The translations under genes and the position numbers were made by a program. This document shows positions 37,667 through 60,139 of a stretch of DNA of 64,000 nucleotides, piece by piece; position 1 is the first letter of the stretch, and every line of letters starts with the position of its first letter. Where the stretch lies: the NCBI GenBank assembly GCA_032128875.1, contig JAVLKG010000005.1:416001-480000 (forward strand), written 5' to 3'. The notes under the pieces were generated by a model, which made no database searches, was not told the DNA's origin, and saw only the letters and a list, made by a program, of their open reading frames with translations. Origin of the DNA: Candidatus Melainabacteria bacterium 17Bon1m (GTDB lineage: Bacteria; Cyanobacteriota; Vampirovibrionia; Obscuribacterales; Obscuribacteraceae).

Positions 37667-40600
37667 ATGCCTCGTCGCACGGATATCTCTAAAATCCTCA
37701 TCATTGGCTCCGGTCCTATCCGCATAGGTCAAGCTTGCGAGTTTGACTATTCCGGAACCCAGGCGTGCCAGGCGCTCCGCCAGGAGGGCTTTGAGGTCGT
37801 TCTGGTCAATTCCAACCCGGCGACCATCATGACCGACCCAGAAGTCGCTCAGCGGACTTATATAGAACCTTTGACCACAGAATTTGTGGAAGCGGTAATT
37901 GCACGCGAACGTCCGCAAGCGTTACTGCCGACAATGGGCGGGCAAACGGCTTTGAACATTGCGGTGAATTTGCACGACCAAGGCATTCTTCAGCGCTACG
38001 GTGTTGAACTAATCGGCGCAACTATGGAAGCGATCAATGTCGCTGAGGACAGGGCTCTTTTCCGCAGCAAGATGATAGAAATCGGCGAACCTGTGCCGCG
38101 TTCATTCATTGCGCATTCGCTAGAAGAAGTCGAAGAACACAAAGACGAGATCCCTTTGCCTTGCATCATTCGTCCTGCTTTTACTCTCGGTGGCACCGGC
38201 AGTGGTGCGGCTGACACTTACGAACAATTAGTGGCGGCCTGCCGCATCGGTTTGGCTGCAAGCCCTGTCAGTGAAGTTCTTATCGAAGAAAGCGTTTACG
38301 GCTGGAAGGAAATGGAACTCGAGGTCGTACGCGATAAGAAGGATAACTTCATCGTCGTTTGCGGCATAGAAAACCTCGATCCGATGGGCGTTCACACCGG
38401 CGATTCGATTACCGTCGCGCCGATACAAACGCTTAGCGATCGCGAGTATCAAAAGCTTAGAGATGCCGCAGCGAAGATTATCAGAGCGATTGGAGTCGAT
38501 TGTGGTGGTTCCAATATTCAATTCGCCGTCAACCCGGTGAATGGTGATTACATCGTCATCGAGATGAATCCGCGCGTGTCGCGTTCGTCCGCACTGGCAA
38601 GTAAGGCGACGGGCTATTCCATTGCTAAAGTAGCTGCGAAGCTCGCAGTCGGCTTTACGCTTGATGAACTCAAGAATGAAGTGGCCGGAATTTCAGCTTG
38701 TTTTGAGCCATCAATTGATTATGTGGTGACCAAAATCCCTCGCTTCAATTTCGATAAGTTCTACGGTGCAAAAGATGGTCTAGGTACTGAGATGCGCTCG
38801 GTGGGCGAGGTTATGGCGGTCGGTACTACTTTTGCCGAATCCATGCATAAGGCTCTGAGAAGTTTGGAACTCAATCTGGCTGGATTTACCGAAACGCCTG
38901 GACGTGCCGCAGCTACTCGTGAGCTATTGACCCAGAGACTGGCGACTCCGTCGCGCTATCGTCTCACCGATATCGCCACTGCTTATGCCCAGGGGTGGTC
39001 GGTTGAGGATGTGCAAAAGGTCTCGAAAATAGATCCGTGGTTTCTCCATAATTTGAAAGAAATTTGCGACAACGAGCGCGGTGCGCGAGCCGTAATTGCA
39101 AAAATCATTGAGAATTTCGGTGTCAAAGCACTCTTCCGCGAGTTTGAAGCGGGCTTGCTTTTGCGTCTCAAGCGCGAGTTCTTCAGCGATGCTCAAATTG
39201 CATCATTTATCAATTCGGCAGTTGGGCGTGAAGTTGCCACTGAAGGTGCCATTTACGCTTTTCGCCAACGCCTCGATTTGCGCCCGGTGTATAAGGCCAT
39301 CGACACTTGCGCCGGCGAGTTTCCCACTCAAACGAATTACTTGTACTCGACATTTGCTCCGGCTCGAGAAGAATACAAAGCTGACGACTCCCAGAAAGTG
39401 ATCATCCTGGGCAGTGGCCCGAATCGCATCGGACAAGCCATCGAGTTTGACTACTGCTGCGTTCAAGCCAGCTTGGCTATAAAAGAGCAAGGCAAGAAGT
39501 CGATCATTGTTAATTGCAATCCTGAAACAGTCTCAACAGACTACGATGTTTCTGATGTTCTCTACTTTGAGCCGCTGACTCTTGAATCAGTGAGCAATAT
39601 TCTTGCCGTAGAAAAGCCGCTTGGAGTGATTGTGCAATTCGGTGGACAAACGCCGCTCAATCTTGCCGAGAAGCTGGAAGCCCGTGGATTCAAGATTTTG
39701 GGAACTTCGGTGAAAGCAATCAAGCTTGCCGAAGATCGCTCCAGTTTTAGAACAGTTTTGTCCGAGCTGGGCATCAGGCAGCCGGAAGGCGCCATTGTTC
39801 ATACCCGTGACGAGGCGCTGAAAGCTGCACGCTTGTTGGGCTTCCCTGTTCTGCTACGACCGAGCTTTGTTCTTGGTGGAAAAGCGATGCACATTGCTCG
39901 CTCTTCGGACCACTTGCTCGAATTGATTGATTCTATTTTTGCGGCGTCGCCGGATCAGCCACTTTTGATCGATCGCTTTTTACAGCATGCTGTTGAAGTT
40001 GACGTTGATGCACTTTCAGATGGCGAGACGACTATCGTAGCCGGCATAATGGAGCACATCGAAGAAGCCGGAGTTCACTCCGGAGACAGTTCGTGCGTGC
40101 TGCCTTCGGTGTCTTTGTCCGAAGAATCAAAATCTCGCATTGTCGCTGCTACCGAAGCAATTGCTGAAAAACTGTCCGTCAAAGGTTTGATGAACGTTCA
40201 GTACGCTATCAAAGACGGTGAGCTTTACGTGCTTGAGGTAAACCCGCGTGCCTCGCGCACTGTTCCATTCGTTTCAAAAGCAACCGGAGTATCGTGGGCA
40301 AAGTTGGCGACCCGAGTGATCATGGGTGAAAAGTTGAGCGACTTGAAGCCGCTTATTCAGCCGGTCGACAATGGTTATGCCGTTAAGTCTGTCGTCATTC
40401 CTTTTGAGCGATTTGTCGATGCACAAGTTTGCCTCGGTCCTGAGATGCGCTCAACCGGTGAGGTTATGGGCCAGGGGGCGAGCTTCGAGGAGGCTTATGC
40501 CCGCGCGCAAATCGCGTCAGGAAAAGCCTTGCCAGTCAATGGACCGGTTCTTATTGCTGCCTCGGAGCATTTGATTGGTGAGGCGCTAAGTGTTGTTGAT

Positions 40601-40993
40601 GTTTTCCGGCGGCATGGCACCGAAGTGATTGTCACTTCCGAGGTTGCTGATTCATTCGATCCCATGAATGCTGATGCGGAAATTATTGATTTGACCAATT
40701 GGCGCATAGAGGACATAGCTGCCTGGATGAAGAAGGCTAACGTCAAACGCGTGGTCAGTTTGTCACCTTTCGACAAACTCTGTCCTGTTCAGGCGAAAGT
40801 TCGAAGAGCTGCCGTGGGACAGGCGATTCCATTGAGCATGACCACCAGAGATGCAATTGGTGTTAGCCAGGCAACAATGACGGTCTCGAAAATGAGTTTG
40901 CAGTTGAAAGCGATTCAAGAGCGCCGTGCTGCGGCTCCTCAGCCTCAATTCGCGGGCGCACCGGCAGCGCCGGTTGGCCAATTTACTATTTGA
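37667..40993 (+). CDS. carB: Carbamoyl-phosphate synthase large subunit with divergent C-terminal MGS domain
   Basis: [47 protein letters not shown], second ATP-grasp [39 protein letters not shown]. Confidence 0.96.
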
Positions 40994-41107: not shown

Positions 41108-42946
41108 GTGACCGGAAAAGTTCGAATACTGGGGATCTCGGCTTATTACCATGACTCCGCCGCTTGCCTTGTAGAAGACGGTGTCATTGTTGCTGCGGCG
41201 CAAGAAGAGCGTTTCACACGGATAAAGGGCGATTCTAGTTTCCCTCACAATGCAGTTGGTTTTTGCCTTGAAACTGGCGGGATTACCGAAAAGGACATTG
41301 ATTATGTCGTTTTCTACGAGAATCCATACGCCAAGTTCGACCGACTTTTAACCACCTATCACGCTACTGTTCCGGCGAGTTTACCTTCATACCTGCGCAG
41401 TTTGCCGGTATGGTTGACTCAGAAATTGTGGATGAGAAAACAGATTTCCGAAGAGTTGGGCGTGAAAAAGCATGTCTACTTCTGCGATCACCACTTGTCG
41501 CACGCAGCCAGCGCCTTTTTTCCATCGCCATTTGAAGAAGCTGCGGTGCTTACGATCGATGGCGTCGGTGAATGGTCTACGACCACTTACGGCATAGGCA
41601 AAGGCGACGATCTGAAGCTGCTCAAGCACATTCGTTTTCCTAACTCACTTGGGTTGCTTTATTCGGCATTTACGTACTACACCGGCTTCAAAATCAATAG
41701 CGGTGAGTACAAATTGATGGGTCTTGCGCCTTACGGCAAGCCAATTTATGCACAGATGATCATGGAAAAACTGATCACCGTTGATGAAGAAGGTGCAGTT
41801 GCTCTTAACCAACATTACTTTGACTATGTTGGTGGACTGACCATGACTAATGCTCGTTTTGATGAGCTTTTCGGCGGACCTCCTCGGGAGCCGGAATCAA
41901 TCATTCGCCAGAAGGAAATGGATATTGCCGCGAGTATTCAGAAAGTTTTGAATGACGTCCTCATCATCATGGCTCGTCATGTGAAGGAAGCAACAGGAGC
42001 CAAAAACCTGGTGTTGGCCGGTGGAGTAGCGCTGAATGTAGTGTCTACTGGAATACTTTCGCGCGAAAAAATCTTCGAGCAAATCTGGATTCAACCGGCG
42101 GCTGGAGATGCCGGTGGCGCGCTTGGCGCTTGCCTCTGGATGTGGCATCAGGTTTTGGGCAAAGGCAGAACCGTTCAAAAGCCTGACTCCATGTCCGGTG
42201 CTTTCCTTGGTCTGGAAATCCCCGATTATTCCGAAGAGGATGATGCCGTGCTTCGCCGAATGGGCGCTGTTTGGCAAGAGATGGATGAAGAGACTCTGCA
42301 AGACGCAATTGCCGAGGCTATCGACAATGGAGAGATCGTTGCTGTAGCTAGAGGCCGCGCTGAATTTGGACCAAGGGCGTTAGGAAGCCGTTCTATTCTT
42401 GCCGATGCGCGCAGTCAGAAAATGCAAAGCCACTTGAACTTGCAGGTGAAGTTCCGCGAGAGCTTCCGACCTTTCGCTCCGATGGTTCTGGCTGAAGACG
42501 CTGAGGAATACTTTGATATTCCGCAAGAAAGTCCGTATATGTTGCTCTGTTACCCGGTTTTGGAAAAACAGAGAATTGCTGTGCAGGATAAGGGGCTGTT
42601 CGGAATCGATCTGTTGAAACAACCCCGCTCTAAGTTGCCGGCAATCACTCACGTGGATTACTCGGCTCGTGTGCAGACAATTGACAGAGACAGAAATCCG
42701 TTTATTCATTCTGTCATCAGCAAATTCAAAAGCCGCTCCGGCTGCTCGGTAATCGTCAACACGTCATTCAACGTGAGGGGCGAGCCGATTGTGAACACCG
42801 CAGAAGATGCATATCGCTGCTTTATGGCCACGGAAATGGACTGCGTGGTGATTGGAAATCGTTTCTTTAGAAGAAAGGACCAGCAGGAAAAACCGCTCAG
42901 CGAAGAAGAAAGATCTGCCTGGTTGAGGAGGTTCGACCTTGACTAA
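41108..42946 (+). CDS. O-carbamoyltransferase (NodU/CmcH/SxtI family)
   Basis: HDSAA, AQEERF, HHLSHAASAF, DGVGE, GEYKLMGLAPYG, EFGPRALG, KFRESFRPFAP, NTSFNVRGEPIV. Confidence 0.95.
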   Translation: MTGKVRILGISAYYHDSAACLVEDGVIVAAAQEERFTRIKGDSSFPHNAVGFCLETGGITEKDIDYVVFYENPYAKFDRLLTTYHATVPASLPSYLRSLPVWLTQKLWMRKQISEELGVKKHVYFCDHHLSHAASAFFPSPFEEAAVLTIDGVGEWSTTTYGIGKGDDLKLLKHIRFPNSLGLLYSAFTYYTGFKINSGEYKLMGLAPYGKPIYAQMIMEKLITVDEEGAVALNQHYFDYVGGLTMTNARFDELFGGPPREPESIIRQKEMDIAASIQKVLNDVLIIMARHVKEATGAKNLVLAGGVALNVVSTGILSREKIFEQIWIQPAAGDAGGALGACLWMWHQVLGKGRTVQKPDSMSGAFLGLEIPDYSEEDDAVLRRMGAVWQEMDEETLQDAIAEAIDNGEIVAVARGRAEFGPRALGSRSILADARSQKMQSHLNLQVKFRESFRPFAPMVLAEDAEEYFDIPQESPYMLLCYPVLEKQRIAVQDKGLFGIDLLKQPRSKLPAITHVDYSARVQTIDRDRNPFIHSVISKFKSRSGCSVIVNTSFNVRGEPIVNTAEDAYRCFMATEMDCVVIGNRFFRRKDQQEKPLSEEERSAWLRRFDLD

Positions 42947-43610
42947 GACTGCATTAGCTGAAAGAAACGAAGTTGCCTTCAGACCCAATCGCAATGCGCG
43001 GGGCTCAGGTCATGTGAGCTCTTACATGAAGCGCTTGAACGTGCGCAGAGAGCGCGCGGCTTTGAAAAACAACGTTATTTTTGGACTGACAATCGGCTGG
43101 GTGCTCACTTTGATGGGCGCTTTCAAAACTTACATTTTGCTTGAAAGCGGCGTGTCGCAGCTGATGCTGGTCGCTGGTGTGGCATTCCTCGGCACCACGC
43201 TTGTTGCGCCCGGACTGATGATTTATCCGCATAAAGTCATGAAAGGGATCGCTACTTTTGTTGGCACCAATTTGTTCAAAGGAATTCTTTGTGTTGTTTA
43301 TTTCCTGACTATCCTGCCTGCAGGACTTATCTACCAGAAGAAAAACAATCACGAACCCTTTTACTCATGGGCAGCGGGTAATGCTCCTAAGATTGAAGGA
43401 TGGACGGAAAAAATTGCCTCTGACGAAAATGGTAAGTCTTCCGAATACAGCTTGCCTGGTTGGCTGCAACCACTCTCTGTCGTGATCTATTTCGCGCGCA
43501 ACAGTCAGTTGCTTTTCCTTCCTTGCTTGATCGTACTTCTCATGCTCGGATTGATCGGAGTTTTTGTTCAAAGCAGTGCGTTGGCTCCATTTATATACAC
43601 ACTGTTCTAA
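42939..43610 (+). CDS. Fused SxtJ-like + SxtK/DUF5989-like membrane protein
   Basis: SxtJ-like FG..P..GIL..YF..ILPAG segment followed by a terminal TM helix ending QSSALAPFIYTLF; overlaps the carbamoyltransferase stop. Confidence 0.8.
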   Translation: MTKTALAERNEVAFRPNRNARGSGHVSSYMKRLNVRRERAALKNNVIFGLTIGWVLTLMGAFKTYILLESGVSQLMLVAGVAFLGTTLVAPGLMIYPHKVMKGIATFVGTNLFKGILCVVYFLTILPAGLIYQKKNNHEPFYSWAAGNAPKIEGWTEKIASDENGKSSEYSLPGWLQPLSVVIYFARNSQLLFLPCLIVLLMLGLIGVFVQSSALAPFIYTLF

Positions 43611-43634: not shown

Positions 43635-45215
43635 TTGCTGGAATTAGCTAGCAAGCCAAAAACAAGCAAAGCAGCTCCGCGTCATTTGTCCGCGGGGACT
43701 GTTGCTCTAACGTCCATCGGCTACTTTGCTGCGTCGCTTGCGATTATCGTCGGTGCTGCATTTGCTCTTGACCGCTGGATTATTCCCGAGATGGAAAATC
43801 GCGGTTATCTCGAATCTCATTTGTGGGCGGATGAAAATCATCAGCTCAATCACTTCACCTATGTGAAGAATGAAGCGCGTAAGGAAAACCCTGTCTGGCG
43901 TTCGCAGTATATTCCCGTAACTGCAGAGCATCCTGGCAAACAGCGAATTCTCGTTATCGGCGATTCATTTGTTTGGGGGGATGGTTCTAACAATGTGAAC
44001 ACCCTCTGGTGGCGCCAATTAGAGCTCGAGCTACAACATCGTGGCTACAACAACGTTGAAATCGTTGCGGCCGGATTGAATGGTGCCAGTACGCACGACC
44101 AGCTGAATTGGTTGGGTTCGATCTTGCCGAAATACACGCCAGATCTTGTGATATTTGGCTGCGTCACCAATGACGCCGATGAAAAGGATGCTAGCGGTAA
44201 GTCTTATGTGCGCATGATTCCGAAAGAATTGCCCGCACGAGAAAGTGCTGATTCTAAGCTGAACAGTCTCTTGCCAAATCTGTCCGGACAGTTGGAGCAG
44301 ATAAGTAAACTCTCGCGCCTGGCTCATTTGAGTCAGAAGTCCACAGCATTGGAATATGCAGATTGGGAACTTGCCTTGTTGAAAGGACAGAATTTCAAAG
44401 CGTATCAAAATACCGTTTCGTCTCTTGCTAATCAATTGAAAACCGCTGGTGTACCGGCCTTTGTAATTTCGCTTCCGGCTGGTTTTCAAAACAAGACAAA
44501 AGAAAACACAGCCGGCGGACAAAACTTCTTCGATAGTGTGAAGGCCTACAATGAGCAGCGTTTTTCCGCTTTTGCGCCAGTGTTCAAGTCCTCGGGTCTA
44601 CTCTTTGTTGATACGACCGAAGCATTCGCAAAGGCTGCATCTGCCGATCCCCGTTTGAAGTCGAGTGGCTCGCCTCTGCGTCTGGGAATAAATCCCAGCA
44701 ATGGACATCCTGGTCCGTTCTCGACCCACTTCTATGCTGTTTCTGCTGCCGATACTATCGAGCGAAATTTCCCTGCTCTCTTGACCAAAACAGCCAGTGC
44801 ATCCAATTCGACTGTTTCCAGATCAGGCGTTGAGATAAACGACTGCATGCCGCCGTATATGAACGTGCGTGCTGATGAGAAAGAGGCTGGCAGTTTTCAG
44901 TTCACCTATCCGCCTGATGTTGCTGAACATACTTTGTTCATGCCGTTGCGTCGCCGTCACGTTCAACTGTCCTTAAAAAAACCAGCTCAAGTTCATACCG
45001 TTGAAATCAGCGGAGACAACCTATCTGCTGCACAGATTTATCCGAGCTTTTTCGATGCCAAACTTGGCTACACGCCGGACGAATTCTCATCGTTGCCACT
45101 TAAAAAGGGAAATGTGCTTACCTGGAATTTGGGCGACAAACAACTGAGCGCACTCAAGATCCGCGCTAGCTTTAATGGCGGCAATCAGGCGCTCAAAATC
45201 CATTTTACGAACTAG
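43635..45215 (+). CDS. Membrane-anchored SGNH/GDSL-family protein (SxtL-like position)
   Basis: N-terminal TM, RILVIGDSFVWG, AAGLNGAST, VTNDAD, NPSNGHP. Confidence 0.8.
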   Translation: MLELASKPKTSKAAPRHLSAGTVALTSIGYFAASLAIIVGAAFALDRWIIPEMENRGYLESHLWADENHQLNHFTYVKNEARKENPVWRSQYIPVTAEHPGKQRILVIGDSFVWGDGSNNVNTLWWRQLELELQHRGYNNVEIVAAGLNGASTHDQLNWLGSILPKYTPDLVIFGCVTNDADEKDASGKSYVRMIPKELPARESADSKLNSLLPNLSGQLEQISKLSRLAHLSQKSTALEYADWELALLKGQNFKAYQNTVSSLANQLKTAGVPAFVISLPAGFQNKTKENTAGGQNFFDSVKAYNEQRFSAFAPVFKSSGLLFVDTTEAFAKAASADPRLKSSGSPLRLGINPSNGHPGPFSTHFYAVSAADTIERNFPALLTKTASASNSTVSRSGVEINDCMPPYMNVRADEKEAGSFQFTYPPDVAEHTLFMPLRRRHVQLSLKKPAQVHTVEISGDNLSAAQIYPSFFDAKLGYTPDEFSSLPLKKGNVLTWNLGDKQLSALKIRASFNGGNQALKIHFTN

Positions 45216-55467: not shown

Positions 55468-57024
55468 TTACTTCACTTCCAGAATCAAACCGCGATTAGC
55501 TCCTATGACTTTCGCAGATATGTTGATAGTGTTTATCCCTCGACCTTTTGCTTCCGGTAATTTCCAGGAGAGCCACGAGCCATTTTTGTTTCCGAGACTG
55601 AACATTTCGCCATTGTCGAAATGTTTTGCTGCATCCACATTCGTTATGTAGAGCGATGCGCCCTTGAGCCCTGTGCCTCCTAGGGTAATTTCCTTCGCAT
55701 TGATAGGCGTTTCTAAATTGAGCTCGATGAATGGCTTTCTCAAAGGCATATTGCGGAAGTCGTCCGCCAATTTCATTGGATATACAACAACAATTTTGTT
55801 GTCTGTCTGTTGGATTTGTAAATTGGGCGGAATGCAGTCGTTGACGCGTAACTGGGCGTCTTTCGATGTGGGCTCACTGGACTTTGTGCCAAGAATCGGC
55901 GCAAAATCCTTTTCTAAAACATCAGCCGCATGAACACCGTAAGCATATGTTGCCCATCTGTTCGGATGCGCGTTGGCAGGATTTACGCCAAAGGACAGGA
56001 CACCCTTTTTTACAAGGCTGTCTTCTTTTCTGGCTGCGTTGATCCATGTGTCGTAGCTGTCTACAACACGAACATCGCGATCCTCGAAGGCTTTTTTGAT
56101 CGGCGGAAAAACGCGATCATAATGTGCCTTGATTCCGTCGAAGTCGACTTTTCCAGGGCACTCATATGGCAAAAGCATGATGAATGAAGGGATGGAGAGG
56201 CTGTGCAGATAATTTGCTGTATTGTCGAGCGTTTTGCCGTACATGCTCCAGTTCTCGCCGGAAAGCAGGCTAAACTCCCAATTGGGCGGGTTATCCTTTG
56301 TGAATTCACCTGAGCGTGTCTTACGCAGATAAGCTTCCCGCAACGCGATCAGTTGATGTGAAAGATGTGGGTACAGTCCTTTGAATGCTTCGAGTAATCC
56401 ATTTTGGCGATGAGGACGGAATAGCAACTTCTGGTCGAAGTCTGCTGTTTGCATTCGCGACATTTCGTCTGCGTCATTGGGAATATATCCCCAAATCACG
56501 AGGTCAGGCTTGAATTTCGGGATTACCTTTTTGGCAGCATCGAGTTCTAAGCGCGTGTTTAAGCCCTGCATTCCGGCTGCGATTATTTCTACATCTTTGT
56601 AGCCGCGACGCTCCAATTCTCTGGCCAGCTGACGCCACCAGATGTCGTTCATGTTGTTGTAACCATGACCCCATACGAAAGAATCGCCAATTACCAGAAT
56701 GCGATGAGCTTTGGCAGACTTCTCTGCGACCGGCCACAAACTGGAGTGCCAGACAGGATTTTGATTGAGATCTGCTTTATTCCTGGCGTGTGCCCAGTAA
56801 TAGATGAAATCGTCCTCTTCTGTCCACGACGCTGAAACGATTTTGCCTTCGTCTTCCAAGGCAGGGATGATCAAGCGATCAAGCACAACAGAGACAAGCA
56901 AGATGAATGCCAGCGAAATCGAGAAATACTTAACGCTAAGTTGCGGAAATATTGCCGCTTTCGTATGAGGTTTCTCTGATTTTTCAGCGCTAATTTTTTG
57001 AGTCACTTCGCCGGCAGCAATCAC
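55468..57024 (-). CDS. Membrane-anchored SGNH-family protein, paralog of 43635-45215
   Basis: LDRLIIP, NPVW, RILVIGDSFVWG, WWRQL, PNDADE, NPANAHP, NDCIPP, MPLR shared with the paralog. Confidence 0.8.
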   Translation of the reverse strand: MIAAGEVTQKISAEKSEKPHTKAAIFPQLSVKYFSISLAFILLVSVVLDRLIIPALEDEGKIVSASWTEEDDFIYYWAHARNKADLNQNPVWHSSLWPVAEKSAKAHRILVIGDSFVWGHGYNNMNDIWWRQLARELERRGYKDVEIIAAGMQGLNTRLELDAAKKVIPKFKPDLVIWGYIPNDADEMSRMQTADFDQKLLFRPHRQNGLLEAFKGLYPHLSHQLIALREAYLRKTRSGEFTKDNPPNWEFSLLSGENWSMYGKTLDNTANYLHSLSIPSFIMLLPYECPGKVDFDGIKAHYDRVFPPIKKAFEDRDVRVVDSYDTWINAARKEDSLVKKGVLSFGVNPANAHPNRWATYAYGVHAADVLEKDFAPILGTKSSEPTSKDAQLRVNDCIPPNLQIQQTDNKIVVVYPMKLADDFRNMPLRKPFIELNLETPINAKEITLGGTGLKGASLYITNVDAAKHFDNGEMFSLGNKNGSWLSWKLPEAKGRGINTINISAKVIGANRGLILEVK

Positions 57025-57256: not shown

Positions 57257-60139
57257 TTGCAACAGTTGATTGACTCGTGGAATGCATTGTCAGAGCGCAA
57301 GAGAGACGGCGTTTGTCTTTTGCTGCTCACGTTGTTTTGTTTAATTGTTTTCTACAAGACCGTGTTTTTGGGTCAGCAGATTAGCCGAATATTCGAAATT
57401 GCCAATATCGACTATTTGTTCAGGCAAGCCTTGGCTGTTCCAATCAAGTATGACCAGCACTGCATGTTCGCCAAAGTGTGCGCATACCTGTTGATTGGTA
57501 CAACTTGGAGAGAAGGCATAATGCCGTTTTGGAATCCGTACATAGGGTGCGGTGCTCCATTCATGGCCGAGCTGCAGTCTGTTGTGTTGTCACCGTGGAC
57601 GTTGTTCTACGTTTTGTGGCCCAGTCTTCAGATGCACAGCTATCTGCTTGTTGCACAGCAGGTTTTGGGAGCGATCGGAATGTTCCTCGCTGCGCGCGCT
57701 TTAGGGCTTTCGCGTTTTGCTTCAGTATTGGCTGCCGTTGTGCATTTGTGTTGCGCTCACCAGCAGTGGCGCCTCGAGTTGCAGATGAATCATTCTTTCT
57801 ATCCGCTTACCGTTTGGTGTTTTGTTCGTCTGTATCAGACGAAGCATTTTTTATGGGCTCTGGCAGCAGGCGCTGGATGTGCGGCGCAAATTCTTTCCGG
57901 CGACGCACAAGTAAGTTTGCTTTCCATAACCACCGTCAGCGTTCTTTTTGTCTTGATGAACCTTCTTGGCGAAGCCAGGCAAGAAGCGTTTTTCAAGCGT
58001 GCGATTGAGGGCGGCGTTTGGTTGTCGCTGGCAGGAATTAACGCAATTTGTTTGGCGTCTCCAGTCTTTCTCGGCTTTGTAGAATGGGTCAAGATAGGCG
58101 ATTTGTCTAAGCACCATGCCTATTATGCAGTTGGAAATCCCGCTCCCTGGCAGAGTCTTGTCTATACTCTGATGCACCCCGGTTATGGCGGTTCATCGTT
58201 GTACGCCGGTTGTTTGACTCTGCCCTTGATTGTCTTTTCACTGCTTGCAATAAAGCAAAAACGCCCTTTCTATCTCAGCGTTTTGCTTACTGCAATTTAT
58301 GCTTTCATGAGCGCGTCTCGCACGGGACCGTTTCCTTTACTGGACTCGAAACTCGGTCTCATGGGACTTTCTCGATTCGAGGGAATGGAGGTTTTCCTTG
58401 TCCAAATCGCTTTTCTCATGGCGTTTGGCCTGGATGAACTGGCCAGATGCAAGTGGACTGTGAGAAATTGGGTTTTTCTTGCGGCCGTTGCCTCCTCTAT
58501 TGCGTCTCTTGCAATTCCTCCTTATCTCGCGAAGATAGGCGTAAATCTCGAAGCGTTTACGTTCGACTTTCATTCGGAAGGATACGGCTTTCAATCGCAA
58601 CAGTGGTATTTCGATCTTGCCTTGGTTTGTGCCTTTTGGGTTCTTCTAGTTCTCGTAAATAGCTATCGAGCAAAGCTGAAGAGCATCGCAGTTATTTTGC
58701 TTTTTGTTATTCCACTGTGCATAAACACAAGCAGCGAGGTCTTCGCTTGCAAAAATGCCTTGCCTAGTTATCCCAAATTCAAGTATCCGAAGACAGAATT
58801 ACTCCAATTTCTTGCTGAGAAAAAAGAGCGCATTGTTCCTATTGGATATAACCTGTTAAGACCAAACAACAATGTTGTTTATAAAATCTCGAGCATGGCG
58901 TGGGCTGGACCTCTTGTGCCTCCGCGGCTGCACAAATTCATAATAGCTGCAGGTGGGCACGCTGATCCATTTACAAAACTGTTTACCCCTGGCCCTCTAA
59001 ACCATCTGCTCGATTTGGCGAGCATCCGATACATCCTTAGTTTTGCTCCTGTGCGCAGTCTGAGCGAACCATATACTTTCGAATCACCTACCGCGCAACC
59101 TGTGAAATTCAAAATTGAACAACGGGTAAGAATGGATGCTGCAAAACTTTTCTACGACTCTCCAAAGGGCGAATTTGGCGGATATATAGACTGGTATGTG
59201 CAAGAGGGCGAAGGCGAGAACTTCGCTTTCCAGATTGCTCTCTTTGACTCTAAAACTGGCAGGGTGTATTGGACTGGCGGACCATTTTATGTCCGTCAGA
59301 CAGAGCGCTTGAAGCGCGATACGCGTCCAAAAACATACAGCCGCATGCCGCTGGACGGCATTGTTCCCAACCATGTGCCCGACTCTACAGATTTATGCGT
59401 GGGAATCACTGTCCAGCAGATTCCTGAGATGAATGAGCTCGAGCCGCAAAGTGGCGGAACGCTTGTTAGTAAAACCATGTTCAAGGTCGCAGATTTTAGA
59501 AAACAATCTCTGCCTTTGGATGCGGCGCGACGCTTCAAAATGGTCAAGGAAGTGCCTGTCAGCTTTGTTCGGGTCTATGAAAACAGAAAGGCAATGCCGA
59601 CTGCATATCTTGTGCACAAAACCGTTCTGAAAGAGAAAGAAGACGAAGTTCTTGCAGAAGTGACAAACCAGGCGTTTGATGCGCGATCTGTTGCCGTAAT
59701 CGAAGACAAGAATTTACCGCCATTGACTGGAGCCGATAAGCCGTCCGCCGCCGATGAAGTCACTTCGGTGAGAACCGACAACAATACTTTGTCTGTTGAT
59801 GTGAAAACTGATAAGCCTGGTTTTTTGGTGGTAACCGACCAATATTTCCCTGGGTGGCATGCTGTTGTGGATGGTGCAGAGGTTGCGATCGCGCACGCCA
59901 ATTACCTATTTAAGGGCATTCCCATTGGTCCTGGCACGCACAAAATCATCTTCTATTTCCGCCCGACATTTTGGAATCTTTCGCTCGTTTTATTGGCTCT
60001 CTGTTTCATTCTGAACACTGCAGCCTTTATCTTCCAGCAAAAGCGGCGCAAGGACATTGCTTCGCCTGCTTACGGCAGCGCTTCAACACCTTCCGGGTCT
60101 TTATCTGGAGGTGGTGGAGGCGAGGACGAGCAAAATTGA
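57257..60139 (+). CDS. YfhO-family membrane protein (GT-C-like glycosyltransferase)
   Basis: PFWNPYIGCGAPF, many TMs, C-terminal VYEN..P.AY..GFLVVTDQYFPGW..ANYLFKGI..G.H.I.F.FRP + TM. Confidence 0.88.
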   Translation: MQQLIDSWNALSERKRDGVCLLLLTLFCLIVFYKTVFLGQQISRIFEIANIDYLFRQALAVPIKYDQHCMFAKVCAYLLIGTTWREGIMPFWNPYIGCGAPFMAELQSVVLSPWTLFYVLWPSLQMHSYLLVAQQVLGAIGMFLAARALGLSRFASVLAAVVHLCCAHQQWRLELQMNHSFYPLTVWCFVRLYQTKHFLWALAAGAGCAAQILSGDAQVSLLSITTVSVLFVLMNLLGEARQEAFFKRAIEGGVWLSLAGINAICLASPVFLGFVEWVKIGDLSKHHAYYAVGNPAPWQSLVYTLMHPGYGGSSLYAGCLTLPLIVFSLLAIKQKRPFYLSVLLTAIYAFMSASRTGPFPLLDSKLGLMGLSRFEGMEVFLVQIAFLMAFGLDELARCKWTVRNWVFLAAVASSIASLAIPPYLAKIGVNLEAFTFDFHSEGYGFQSQQWYFDLALVCAFWVLLVLVNSYRAKLKSIAVILLFVIPLCINTSSEVFACKNALPSYPKFKYPKTELLQFLAEKKERIVPIGYNLLRPNNNVVYKISSMAWAGPLVPPRLHKFIIAAGGHADPFTKLFTPGPLNHLLDLASIRYILSFAPVRSLSEPYTFESPTAQPVKFKIEQRVRMDAAKLFYDSPKGEFGGYIDWYVQEGEGENFAFQIALFDSKTGRVYWTGGPFYVRQTERLKRDTRPKTYSRMPLDGIVPNHVPDSTDLCVGITVQQIPEMNELEPQSGGTLVSKTMFKVADFRKQSLPLDAARRFKMVKEVPVSFVRVYENRKAMPTAYLVHKTVLKEKEDEVLAEVTNQAFDARSVAVIEDKNLPPLTGADKPSAADEVTSVRTDNNTLSVDVKTDKPGFLVVTDQYFPGWHAVVDGAEVAIAHANYLFKGIPIGPGTHKIIFYFRPTFWNLSLVLLALCFILNTAAFIFQQKRRKDIASPAYGSASTPSGSLSGGGGGEDEQN

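Follow-up and report, generated by a model that had tools for sequence, protein, structure and literature searches.

Why would a membrane protein without an MBOAT core end in the type of tyrosine-bearing hexapeptide that serves DltX and bacterial MBOAT enzymes as a shuttle for acyl groups? The question is raised by a 64,000-nucleotide stretch of Candidatus Melainabacteria bacterium 17Bon1m (contig JAVLKG010000005.1, positions 416,001 to 480,000), called here the window and used for all coordinates unless a contig or locus is named. On its + strand an open reading frame (ORF) encodes a fusion of two protein families, SxtJ and SxtK (DUF5989), whose last residues are F-I-Y-T-L-F. We propose that the SxtK part works as a tyrosine shuttle like DltX and helps to pass carbamoyl groups to a glycan outside the cytoplasm, and we put the probability of this at roughly 45%. 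The protein and its parts are:

42939..43610, + strand: SxtJ-SxtK (DUF5989) fusion, 223 amino acids (aa) counted from TTG
43488..43607, + strand: DUF5989/SxtK part, residues 184-223, with a transmembrane (TM) helix at 191-210, the linker QSSALAP and the tail
43590..43607, + strand: hexapeptide F-I-Y-T-L-F, the proposed shuttle motif, with Tyr220 at position -4 from the C-terminus

The C-terminal residues read LGLIGVFVQSSALAPFIYTLF (also given as QSSALAPFIYTLF) and are followed by the stop; F218 is encoded by 43590-43592, F223 by 43605-43607 and the TAA stop by 43608-43610. The preliminary description of this DNA had placed a DltX/AlgI-type hexapeptide at 43590..43610, and the translation agrees exactly, the span being the hexapeptide plus its stop codon. 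The start of the fusion is uncertain because there is an alternative ATG at 43026, where the ESM Atlas copy begins (residue 30). Residues 184-223 match positions 10-49 of 49 in Pfam DUF5989 (PF19451; E-value 2.1e-9; 37.7 bits, cut-off 27), a match that scores 40.8 bits in a genome-wide scan; since it runs to the last profile position, the hexapeptide is the end of the family profile. The fusion departs from DUF5989 as a small single-TM peptide of ~50 aa in that the domain forms only the C-terminal 40-50 residues of 223 aa. What, then, precedes it? With hmmscan, residues 1-183 gave no match to SxtJ (PF19588) at E-values up to 1 and no other Pfam match in the N-terminal part. A profile of 86 fused relatives compared by hhalign with 21 standalone SxtJ-type ORFs aligned residues 38-162 over 120 columns (98.6%, E 6.9e-16), and four of five scanned standalone SxtJ-type ORFs exceed the Pfam SxtJ cut-off. 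Profile comparison thus identifies the protein as an SxtJ-SxtK fusion. Its full-length relatives number 31, with Obscuribacterales/Melainabacteria as source names, and a search of the ESM Atlas with the SxtK part gave no usable match. The AlphaFold2 (AF2) model of the fusion has a mean predicted local distance difference test score (pLDDT) of 78.9, with a helix at 191-212 and pLDDT below 50 for residues 214-223.

How much can be read into six residues? Every ORF in the genome of the same organism (7.55 Mb, 35 contigs) was listed, and F.Y..F stands at the C-terminus of 17 of the 58,573 that have at least 40 aa. Two of these are short (84 and 50 aa). The other 15 belong to the 7,429 ORFs of at least 150 aa, where composition predicts 0.31, and they are all 14 MBOAT (PF03062) matches plus the SxtJ-SxtK fusion; the hexapeptide is far beyond chance. 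In the MBOATs the tail is F[IV]YFQF, in most cases after a P, and lies ~9 residues past the last hydrophobic helix; the tail of the fusion, APFIYTLF, sits nine residues past its own helix. Across 80 related loci, described below, the strict motif ends 85 of 8,305 ORFs, 82 of them DUF5989 and three others; two of the three, neither of them annotated, end in FIYF[QD]F and resemble the MBOATs of this genome. In its accessible part, PMC12148441 defines FXYXXF as an ‘acyl shuttle’ motif in DltX and at the C-termini of bacterial MBOATs, and reports that the tail Tyr of Neisseria gonorrhoeae PatA is auto-acetylated and that PatB uses the acetylated peptide FIYANF. The accessible text of PMC13653941 shows the C-terminal peptide NQAKFIYNEF of Lactobacillus plantarum DltX (49 aa) binding the DltD ectodomain, and calls the motif extracytoplasmic. 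These peptides bear out the likeness from which the preliminary description had started. The 14 MBOAT paralogues (for example C5:490211-491725, just past the end of the window) all end in F[IV]YFQF-COOH, and a ~400-aa ORF lies 3' of most of them, with 8 of 13 such ORFs matching GDSL_2, DUF1574 or DltD; for a single genome, so many polymer-acylation pairs are unusual.

Is the motif a property of the family or of this protein? The last 49 residues, used as a phmmer query on 1.84 billion representatives (50% clusters), gave 104 matches at E-values up to 1e-3. In 103 of them the Tyr is at -4, the protein ending at the exact C-terminus as x-[IVL]-Y-x-x-F; 86 have the strict FxYxxF, 102 fit hydrophobic-x-Y-x-x-hydrophobic, and the sole exception continues from FIYTI for five further residues. 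Lengths are bimodal, with standalone peptides of ~50-60 aa and SxtJ fusions of ~200 aa (~60% of the 104). In 12 fused relatives, at identities down to 33%, the tail is essentially unchanged, and in 25 standalone peptides the P, F, Y and final F are invariant. Conservation of the Tyr and of its terminal position was one of the points on which the preliminary description had staked its idea, and both are conserved. A scan of 401 genomes of the same phylum with the Pfam hidden Markov model found DUF5989 above cut-off in 74. Among them, small genomes of the same class (G363, G335, G269 and G149; loci L138-L141) have cassettes in the order SxtK, SxtJ, carbamoyltransferase with tails FIYTII, FIYTVI or FVYPFF, and L138-L140 have no SGNH gene within 6 kb. 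Two DUF5989 copies are decayed, one truncated and outside any cassette, the other with an in-frame TAG beside a fragmented carbamoyltransferase.

With which enzymes could such a tail work? In the window the fusion is enclosed by candidate partners:

37667..40993, + strand: carB, carbamoyl-phosphate synthase large chain, 1108 aa (CPSase_L_D2 E 6.6e-106, CPSase_L_D1 E 2.4e-99)
41108..42946, + strand: NodU/CmcH-type O-carbamoyltransferase, SxtI-like, 612 aa, no TM helix, overlapping the next ORF by 8 nt
43635..45215, + strand: SGNH/GDSL protein in SxtL-like position, 526 aa (Pfam Lipase_GDSL_2, E 4.1e-8), with a TM anchor at ~21-45, an SGNH domain at ~100-385 (Ser111, Asn179, His358) and a C-terminal beta-sandwich at ~400-526
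55468..57024, - strand: SGNH paralogue, 518 aa (phmmer E 1.4e-86)

The carbamoyltransferase has the Kae1-like and YrdC-like domain pair of NodU/CmcH enzymes (Carbam_trans_N, E 8e-92, residues 6-342; Carbam_trans_C, E 6.6e-68, residues 402-588) and by phmmer is the only one of its type in the genome; an identity as NodU itself was rejected, the NCBIfam NodU model scoring 144 bits against an equivalog cut-off of 1000. One of the two carB copies of the genome lies directly upstream (the other is at C2:952604-955915) and possibly makes the carbamoyl donor specifically for this enzyme; a carA gene was not seen next to the window copy. The surrounding genes encode GT2 and GT4 glycosyltransferases, sugar epimerases/dehydratases, methyltransferases, a phosphomannomutase-type enzyme, a nucleotidyl transferase and a YfhO-like membrane protein. 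The cassette therefore sits in a surface-glycan cluster, and its substrate is presumably a polysaccharide.

On which side of the membrane is the tail? In SxtK the 15 residues before the TM helix carry on average 2.08 lysines and arginines (K/R) vs 0.12 in the 13-residue tail, and the N side is the richer in 93 of 103 proteins, the two sides being equal in nine and the N side poorer in one. In a 50-aa peptide that has no signal sequence, such a charge bias strongly predicts an N-in, C-out orientation like that of DltX. The SGNH family has an N-terminal hydrophobic segment in 70 of 70 sequences, with mean K/R of 2.8 before it and 1.6 after it, which would place the catalytic domain outside. Tail and SGNH domain are thus predicted to face the same side. 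In standalone SxtJ the C-tail (35 residues) carries a mean of 8.05 K/R, compared with 3.4 at the N-terminus, 1.6 for loop 1 and 3.0 for loop 2, a pattern that appears best satisfied if loop 1 alone is outside. The topology of the fused protein is ambiguous. It has four hydrophobic helices (46-68, 75-96, 111-132 and 191-210), and the tail can be outside only if helix 111-132 does not fully cross the membrane. AF2 draws residues 91-135 as one 45-residue helix, and we infer that helix 111-132 lies in or along the inner leaflet, giving the order N-in, TM1, loop 1 out, TM2, then inside up to the SxtK helix, and tail out.

But what if all four helices are true spans? With the N-terminus inside, the tail would lie in the cytoplasm and could enter the carbamoyltransferase as acceptor, relay or pseudo-substrate regulator, the SGNH protein being linked by membrane scaffolding only. 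Members of the NodU/CmcH family O-carbamoylate hydroxyls, and a Tyr hydroxyl would be a plausible acceptor. The model of the complex with the SGNH protein, presented below, points the same way: SxtJ helix 46-58 runs parallel to an SGNH anchor that is N-in, and residues 84-91 are back at the inner leaflet, which would leave the C-terminus inside. This topology would, however, leave in the periplasm both the SxtJ C-tail with its ~8 K/R and the N-flank of standalone SxtK, itself rich in K/R, contrary to the positive-inside rule, and a signal-less 50-aa peptide has no means of exporting its charged N-terminus. The continuous 91-135 helix also fits an in-plane helix better than a span that follows a surface helix, and PatA, in the accessible description of PMC12148441, has just the order TM helix, peripheral cytoplasmic helix, TM helix and periplasmic tail. 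We consider a cytoplasmic tail improbable. That the C-terminus shares the side of the SGNH domain, as the shuttle proposal demands, is favoured by the positive-inside rule and put in doubt by the count of four spans.

Does the tail-bearing protein bind the SGNH protein? The AF2 model of the latter has a pLDDT of 91.4, and in 70 sequences of its family G109, D110, S111, D180 and H358 are invariant and N179 near-invariant, which supplies the Ser of block I, the Asn of block III and the His of block V. SGNH residues 1-400 (70-sequence alignment) were co-folded with the fusion (86-sequence alignment) alongside three controls. The interaction prediction score from aligned errors (ipSAE) was 0.76 (runs 0.82, 0.57 and 0.76), against 0.00 for the best control; 58 of 80 solved complexes attain that mark, as do 2 of 110 mismatched pairs, a rough yardstick here as our own alignments were used. 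At least 88% of the contacts are shared between runs, and the partner pLDDT is at least 67. In the confident interface the SGNH anchor (16-38) lies parallel to SxtJ helix 31-58 and SGNH helix 220-231 rests on SxtJ loop 65-68, which would place loop 1 of SxtJ on the SGNH side. The model supports a membrane complex of the SxtJ part with the SGNH protein. The tail (214-223), Ser111 and His358 are not among the confidently touching residues, which by the rule of the tool is evidence neither way. The preliminary description had suggested co-folding the tail with the SGNH active site; the co-fold supports a SxtJ-SGNH complex and does not confidently place the tail in that site. The modelled fold makes a carbohydrate substrate plausible for the SGNH protein.

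Is the cassette maintained elsewhere? A scan of one genome per species matched at least 600 stretches; 265 of them could be confirmed, and 80 loci were retained. Among their sources are Acidobacteriota, Gemmatimonadota, Planctomycetota, Nitrospirota, Proteobacteria, Bacteroidota, Actinobacteria and candidate-phyla groups; more than 10 phylum-level groups besides the phylum of the window are represented. Neighbours were counted for the 61 DUF5989 copies that are flanked on either side by 3 kb or more. A carbamoyltransferase is found within 3 kb of 53 of the 61, usually adjacent or overlapping, and so is SxtJ (53/61 with a rebuilt profile; a first, weaker profile gave 48/61 and missed divergent copies). 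SGNH relatives are within 3 kb of 30 copies and within 6 kb of 34. Among the neighbouring SGNH ORFs 51 of 54 match SGNH Pfam families and 13 of 54 match ALGX, seven of the 13 above cut-off; ALGX is an SGNH acetyltransferase family that partners the MBOAT AlgI. In same-phylum loci an SGNH gene stands directly beside DUF5989 in 19 of 30, mostly in the order carbamoyltransferase-SxtJ-SxtK-SGNH, many of these loci being from one genus and not independent, and their SGNH proteins likewise start with a TM anchor. The four-gene cassette is conserved, and because the carbamoyltransferase is its near-constant member the group carried would be carbamoyl. Whether tail variants go with SGNH adjacency is a comparison that these loci leave uninformative, since they were chosen by a pattern that contains the tail. 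Apparent fusions of the carbamoyltransferase with SxtJ or SxtK (e.g. in L011, L029, L036 and L045) were rejected as overlapping-frame artefacts of calling ORFs from the first start codon. In some loci (L018, L023 and L035) two DUF5989 copies alternate with SGNH genes, of which there are two or three, as in L023: carbamoyltransferase, SxtK, SGNH, a carbamoyltransferase fragment, SxtK, SGNH, SGNH.

Could the cargo be something else? A carbamoyltransferase is missing from the 3 kb around eight of the 61 copies. Four of these eight (L006, L012, L017 and L069) have no SGNH gene within that distance either; three are in unrelated surroundings and L069 is among sugar-nucleotide and ABC-2 export genes. 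The other four adjoin SGNH genes (L026, L063 and two copies in L018), and L026 and L063 are DUF5989-SGNH pairs in loci without any carbamoyltransferase. In L026, which also lacks SxtJ, a 560-aa ORF without a Pfam match (L026:4398-6077, + strand) lies upstream of the SGNH and DUF5989 genes and is a candidate for an alternative loader. Such copies would suit a tail that is loaded with another group, for example acetyl, by some membrane enzyme, the carbamoyltransferase being independent. The 53 copies that do have a carbamoyltransferase nearby speak against this, the cassettes examined showed no membrane protein that uses acyl-CoA, and we find it very improbable.

Whom, then, does the tail serve, the SGNH protein or the carbamoyltransferase? 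SxtJ and SxtK may form a non-covalent adaptor that tethers and activates the carbamoyltransferase at the membrane, the tail being a docking peptide that carries nothing. The enzyme would then act at the cytoplasmic face on a lipid- or nucleotide-linked glycan precursor (a small molecule in sxt clusters), and the SGNH protein would be a hydrolase trimming carbamoyl or acetyl groups, as proposed for SxtL. That the carbamoyltransferase and SxtJ accompany DUF5989 more often than SGNH does is what an adaptor would lead one to expect, and esterases are the top fold matches of the SGNH domain. Possible docking ends are also conserved. Standalone SxtJ proteins (loci L006-L085) have a C-tail of ~35 residues with ~8 K/R that ends in [RKNH]-[QMP]-[FY]-COOH; 53 of 64 SxtJ ORFs of less than 260 aa end in F or Y, RQF being commonest, which makes this a second conserved C-terminal aromatic in the same cassette. 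The carbamoyltransferases end in [FY]-x-L-D-COOH, with LD in 45 of 66 ORFs of more than 500 aa and FDLD in the window protein (42935-42946), and this end could dock the K/R-rich SxtJ tail. An adaptor leaves unexplained, however, why the exact MBOAT/DltX hexapeptide with an invariant Tyr should stand at the exact C-terminus, why predictions put the tail on the outside, where the carbamoyltransferase is not, why DUF5989-SGNH pairs occur without a carbamoyltransferase, and why 13 of the 54 neighbouring SGNH ORFs have an ALGX-type (transferase) character. We rate it as a serious but rather unlikely alternative.

How might a tyrosine shuttle work here? The SxtK TM helix would expose the tail, flexible and invariant in its ...APFIYTLF-COOH sequence, at the outside of the cytoplasmic membrane. 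In a first step the cytoplasmic NodU/CmcH-type enzyme would activate carbamoyl phosphate, possibly made with the adjacent second carB copy. The carbamoyl group would then pass through or alongside the membrane part of SxtJ to the Tyr220 hydroxyl, forming O-carbamoyl-tyrosine, an aryl carbamate. In a third step the tail would swing into the SGNH protein, whose TM anchor would keep it on SxtJ through packing of the helices, and Ser111 would become carbamoylated; finally the SGNH protein would hand the group to a glycan hydroxyl, the glycan being the product of the surrounding cluster. The last three steps, the covalent intermediate and the identity of the carried group are what we infer from the arrangement of the parts. 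The chemistry is reasonable, O-aryl carbamates being competent carbamoyl donors to serine nucleophiles, as known from the pharmacology of carbamate inhibitors. A tyrosine shuttle is the most economical reading because it accounts together for an MBOAT/DltX-type tail, a fixed terminal Tyr, a tail predicted outside and a bound or neighbouring TM-anchored SGNH protein.

What weighs against the shuttle? The first difficulty is loading. The only candidate loader is a soluble cytoplasmic carbamoyltransferase that needs ATP and carbamoyl phosphate, and SxtJ consists of three short hydrophobic helices with no obvious catalytic residue and no evident carbamoyl conduit. Pfam scans of the window found no MBOAT or AT3 in the cassette, and the 14 MBOATs of the genome lie elsewhere with tails of their own. 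The second concerns the SGNH protein, in which the Asp of the block V DxxH is absent, the family reading N353-P-x-N356-G-H358-P-G (NPxNGHPG). The window protein itself has no ALGX or DltD match in Pfam. As modelled, the fold is generic SGNH, in which transferase and hydrolase are indistinguishable: the best VIA-align match is an acetyl xylan esterase (7ddy_B, Z 16.0, root-mean-square deviation 3.3 Å, 190 residues aligned), PatB is in a tie group at Z 14.3, and the top Foldseek match is a two-domain mannan acetyl esterase. Ranking folds was accordingly rejected as a test of transferase against hydrolase, generic esterases and PatB lying within ~2 Z units. Stoichiometry and linkage are a third: the genome has four paralogous SGNH proteins for a single DUF5989, and 31 of the 61 copies have no SGNH gene within 3 kb. 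The three paralogues of the 526-aa protein (the one in the window, C5:393130-394710 and C10:43170-44675; E 1.4e-86 to 6.3e-69) are not beside an MBOAT, and one shuttle might serve several transferases, or the paralogous proteins might work without one. Conservation also has its limits, as the queries for the 104 matches and the 80 loci contained the tail, which somewhat favours it, and in the subgroup with Pfam-found tails FIYTII, FIYTVI and FVYPFF the last F is not invariant, the Tyr position being kept. The count of four spans discussed above belongs on the same side.

Homology to DltX is the last point. A profile of 25 standalone peptides searched against all PDB chains at E-values up to 10 gave no DltX chain, the only matches being chance TM matches to PsbJ (E 0.15) and to the NPxxY segment of a G protein-coupled receptor construct (SSAVNPLVYTLF, E 4.3); six family members gave no Pfam match to DltX (PF12459) at E-values up to 10. 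Homology to DltX is therefore rejected for want of sequence similarity, and the analogy is kept. Of the claim that DUF5989/SxtK is a DltX analogue, the conserved Tyr, the architecture, the predicted side and the SGNH neighbour and complex speak in favour, and the missing homology and MBOAT against. Might the motif then be mere convergence, an aromatic tail for membrane insertion, stability or oligomerisation of a tail-anchored peptide? Short aromatic motifs do recur by chance, of which the receptor match is an example, and the missing homology fits. Chance does not fit a motif confined to MBOATs and the fusion among the larger ORFs of the genome (15 vs 0.31 expected), nor a terminal position fixed in 103 of 104 proteins, nor SGNH neighbours far above chance, with 30 within 3 kb and only 4 more at 3-6 kb. 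An unrelated motif seems to us quite improbable.

How does the proposed shuttle compare with known ones? Like DltX, the standalone relatives are ~50-aa micro-proteins with one TM helix and a terminal F-I-Y-x-x-F that is predicted to be extracytoplasmic (NQAKFIYNEF in DltX, APFIYTLF here). As far as the accessible accounts go, both have a TM-anchored partner of SGNH fold (a candidate partner here) whose TM helix packs, in models, on the shuttle module, and the order amphipathic N-helix, one TM helix, ~9 linker residues and P-F-I-Y-x-x-F-COOH is shared with DltX and the MBOAT tails. The differences are considerable. The cassette lacks DltB (an MBOAT) and a carrier protein, and SxtK has no sequence homology with DltX; the donor enzyme is a cytoplasmic ATP-dependent carbamoyltransferase and the cargo would be carbamoyl rather than D-alanyl; and SxtJ is an almost constant companion, fused here, so that the modelled SGNH anchor contacts SxtJ and not the SxtK helix. 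The MBOATs of the PatA and AlgI type, whose SGNH partners are PatB and AlgX/AlgJ, have the same tail, those of this genome ending in P-F-I-Y-F-Q-F. The PatA arrangement of TM helix, peripheral helix, TM helix and tail, as given in its accessible description, resembles the end of SxtJ, the amphipathic helix 174-187, the TM helix 191-210 and the tail, and the ALGX matches among neighbouring SGNH ORFs recall AlgI systems. Unlike in MBOATs, the tail here is not attached to an MBOAT core, and there is no conserved His-containing funnel for loading. The accessible text of PMC12148441 states that MBOAT/SGNH pathways other than Dlt do without a DltX-like micro-protein.

The same four families occur in the same order in saxitoxin clusters, as sxtI-J-K-L. 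There sxtI has 1839 bp (612 codons, matching the 612 aa of the carbamoyltransferase here), sxtJ 405 bp and sxtK 165 bp, and sxtL encodes a GDSL lipase, according to the accessible part of PMC2679770. In the accessible text of PMC2679770 and PMC12300590 SxtJ and SxtK are listed as ‘Unknown’ and SxtL, by proposal, as ‘Decarbamoylation’; elsewhere SxtJ and SxtK are given, in the text available, as an unspecified complex with SxtI. The window differs in that J and K are fused and in that the cassette belongs to a glycan cluster of a non-photosynthetic Melainabacteria-type genome rather than a toxin cluster; the window showed none of the sxt core genes. It is conceivable, though we find it doubtful, that carbamoyltransferase, SxtJ, SxtK and SGNH form a phylum-spanning machine that moves the carbamoyl of carbamoyl phosphate to extracytoplasmic glycans via O-carbamoyl-tyrosine on the tail of a micro-protein, without MBOAT or AT3, and that sxtIJKL is a co-opted copy of it.

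Has such a system been described? The literature searches made here found no publication that links the DUF5989/SxtK tail to a tyrosine shuttle or to carbamoyl. The term ‘DUF5989’ is absent from the literature searched, and no paper in it combines O-carbamoyltransferase, polysaccharide and periplasm; the literature found for acyl shuttle, microprotein, MBOAT and SGNH consists of the papers on PatAB and on DltE-DltD-DltX, in which ‘carbamoyl’ does not occur. Within that literature a tyrosine shuttle without MBOAT, and for carbamate, is new. If correct, it would be the first without MBOAT or AT3 and the first for a non-acyl group, extending the shuttle principle past MBOAT systems. Both SxtJ and DUF5989/SxtK, which are widespread, would gain a molecular function open to testing. 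The shuttle would also point to an unstudied envelope modification, the O-carbamoylation of surface glycans outside the cytoplasm. For saxitoxin it would make SxtL the transferase that acts last, not a decarbamoylase, and would move this tailoring out of the cytoplasm, revising a twenty-year-old annotation of three genes of the cluster.

The glycan cluster around the cassette has a further feature. At 57257-60139 on the + strand, a 960-aa protein has a YfhO-like match in its C-terminal part (E 5.5e-12), and unannotated ORFs of 680, 444 and 408 aa adjoin it.

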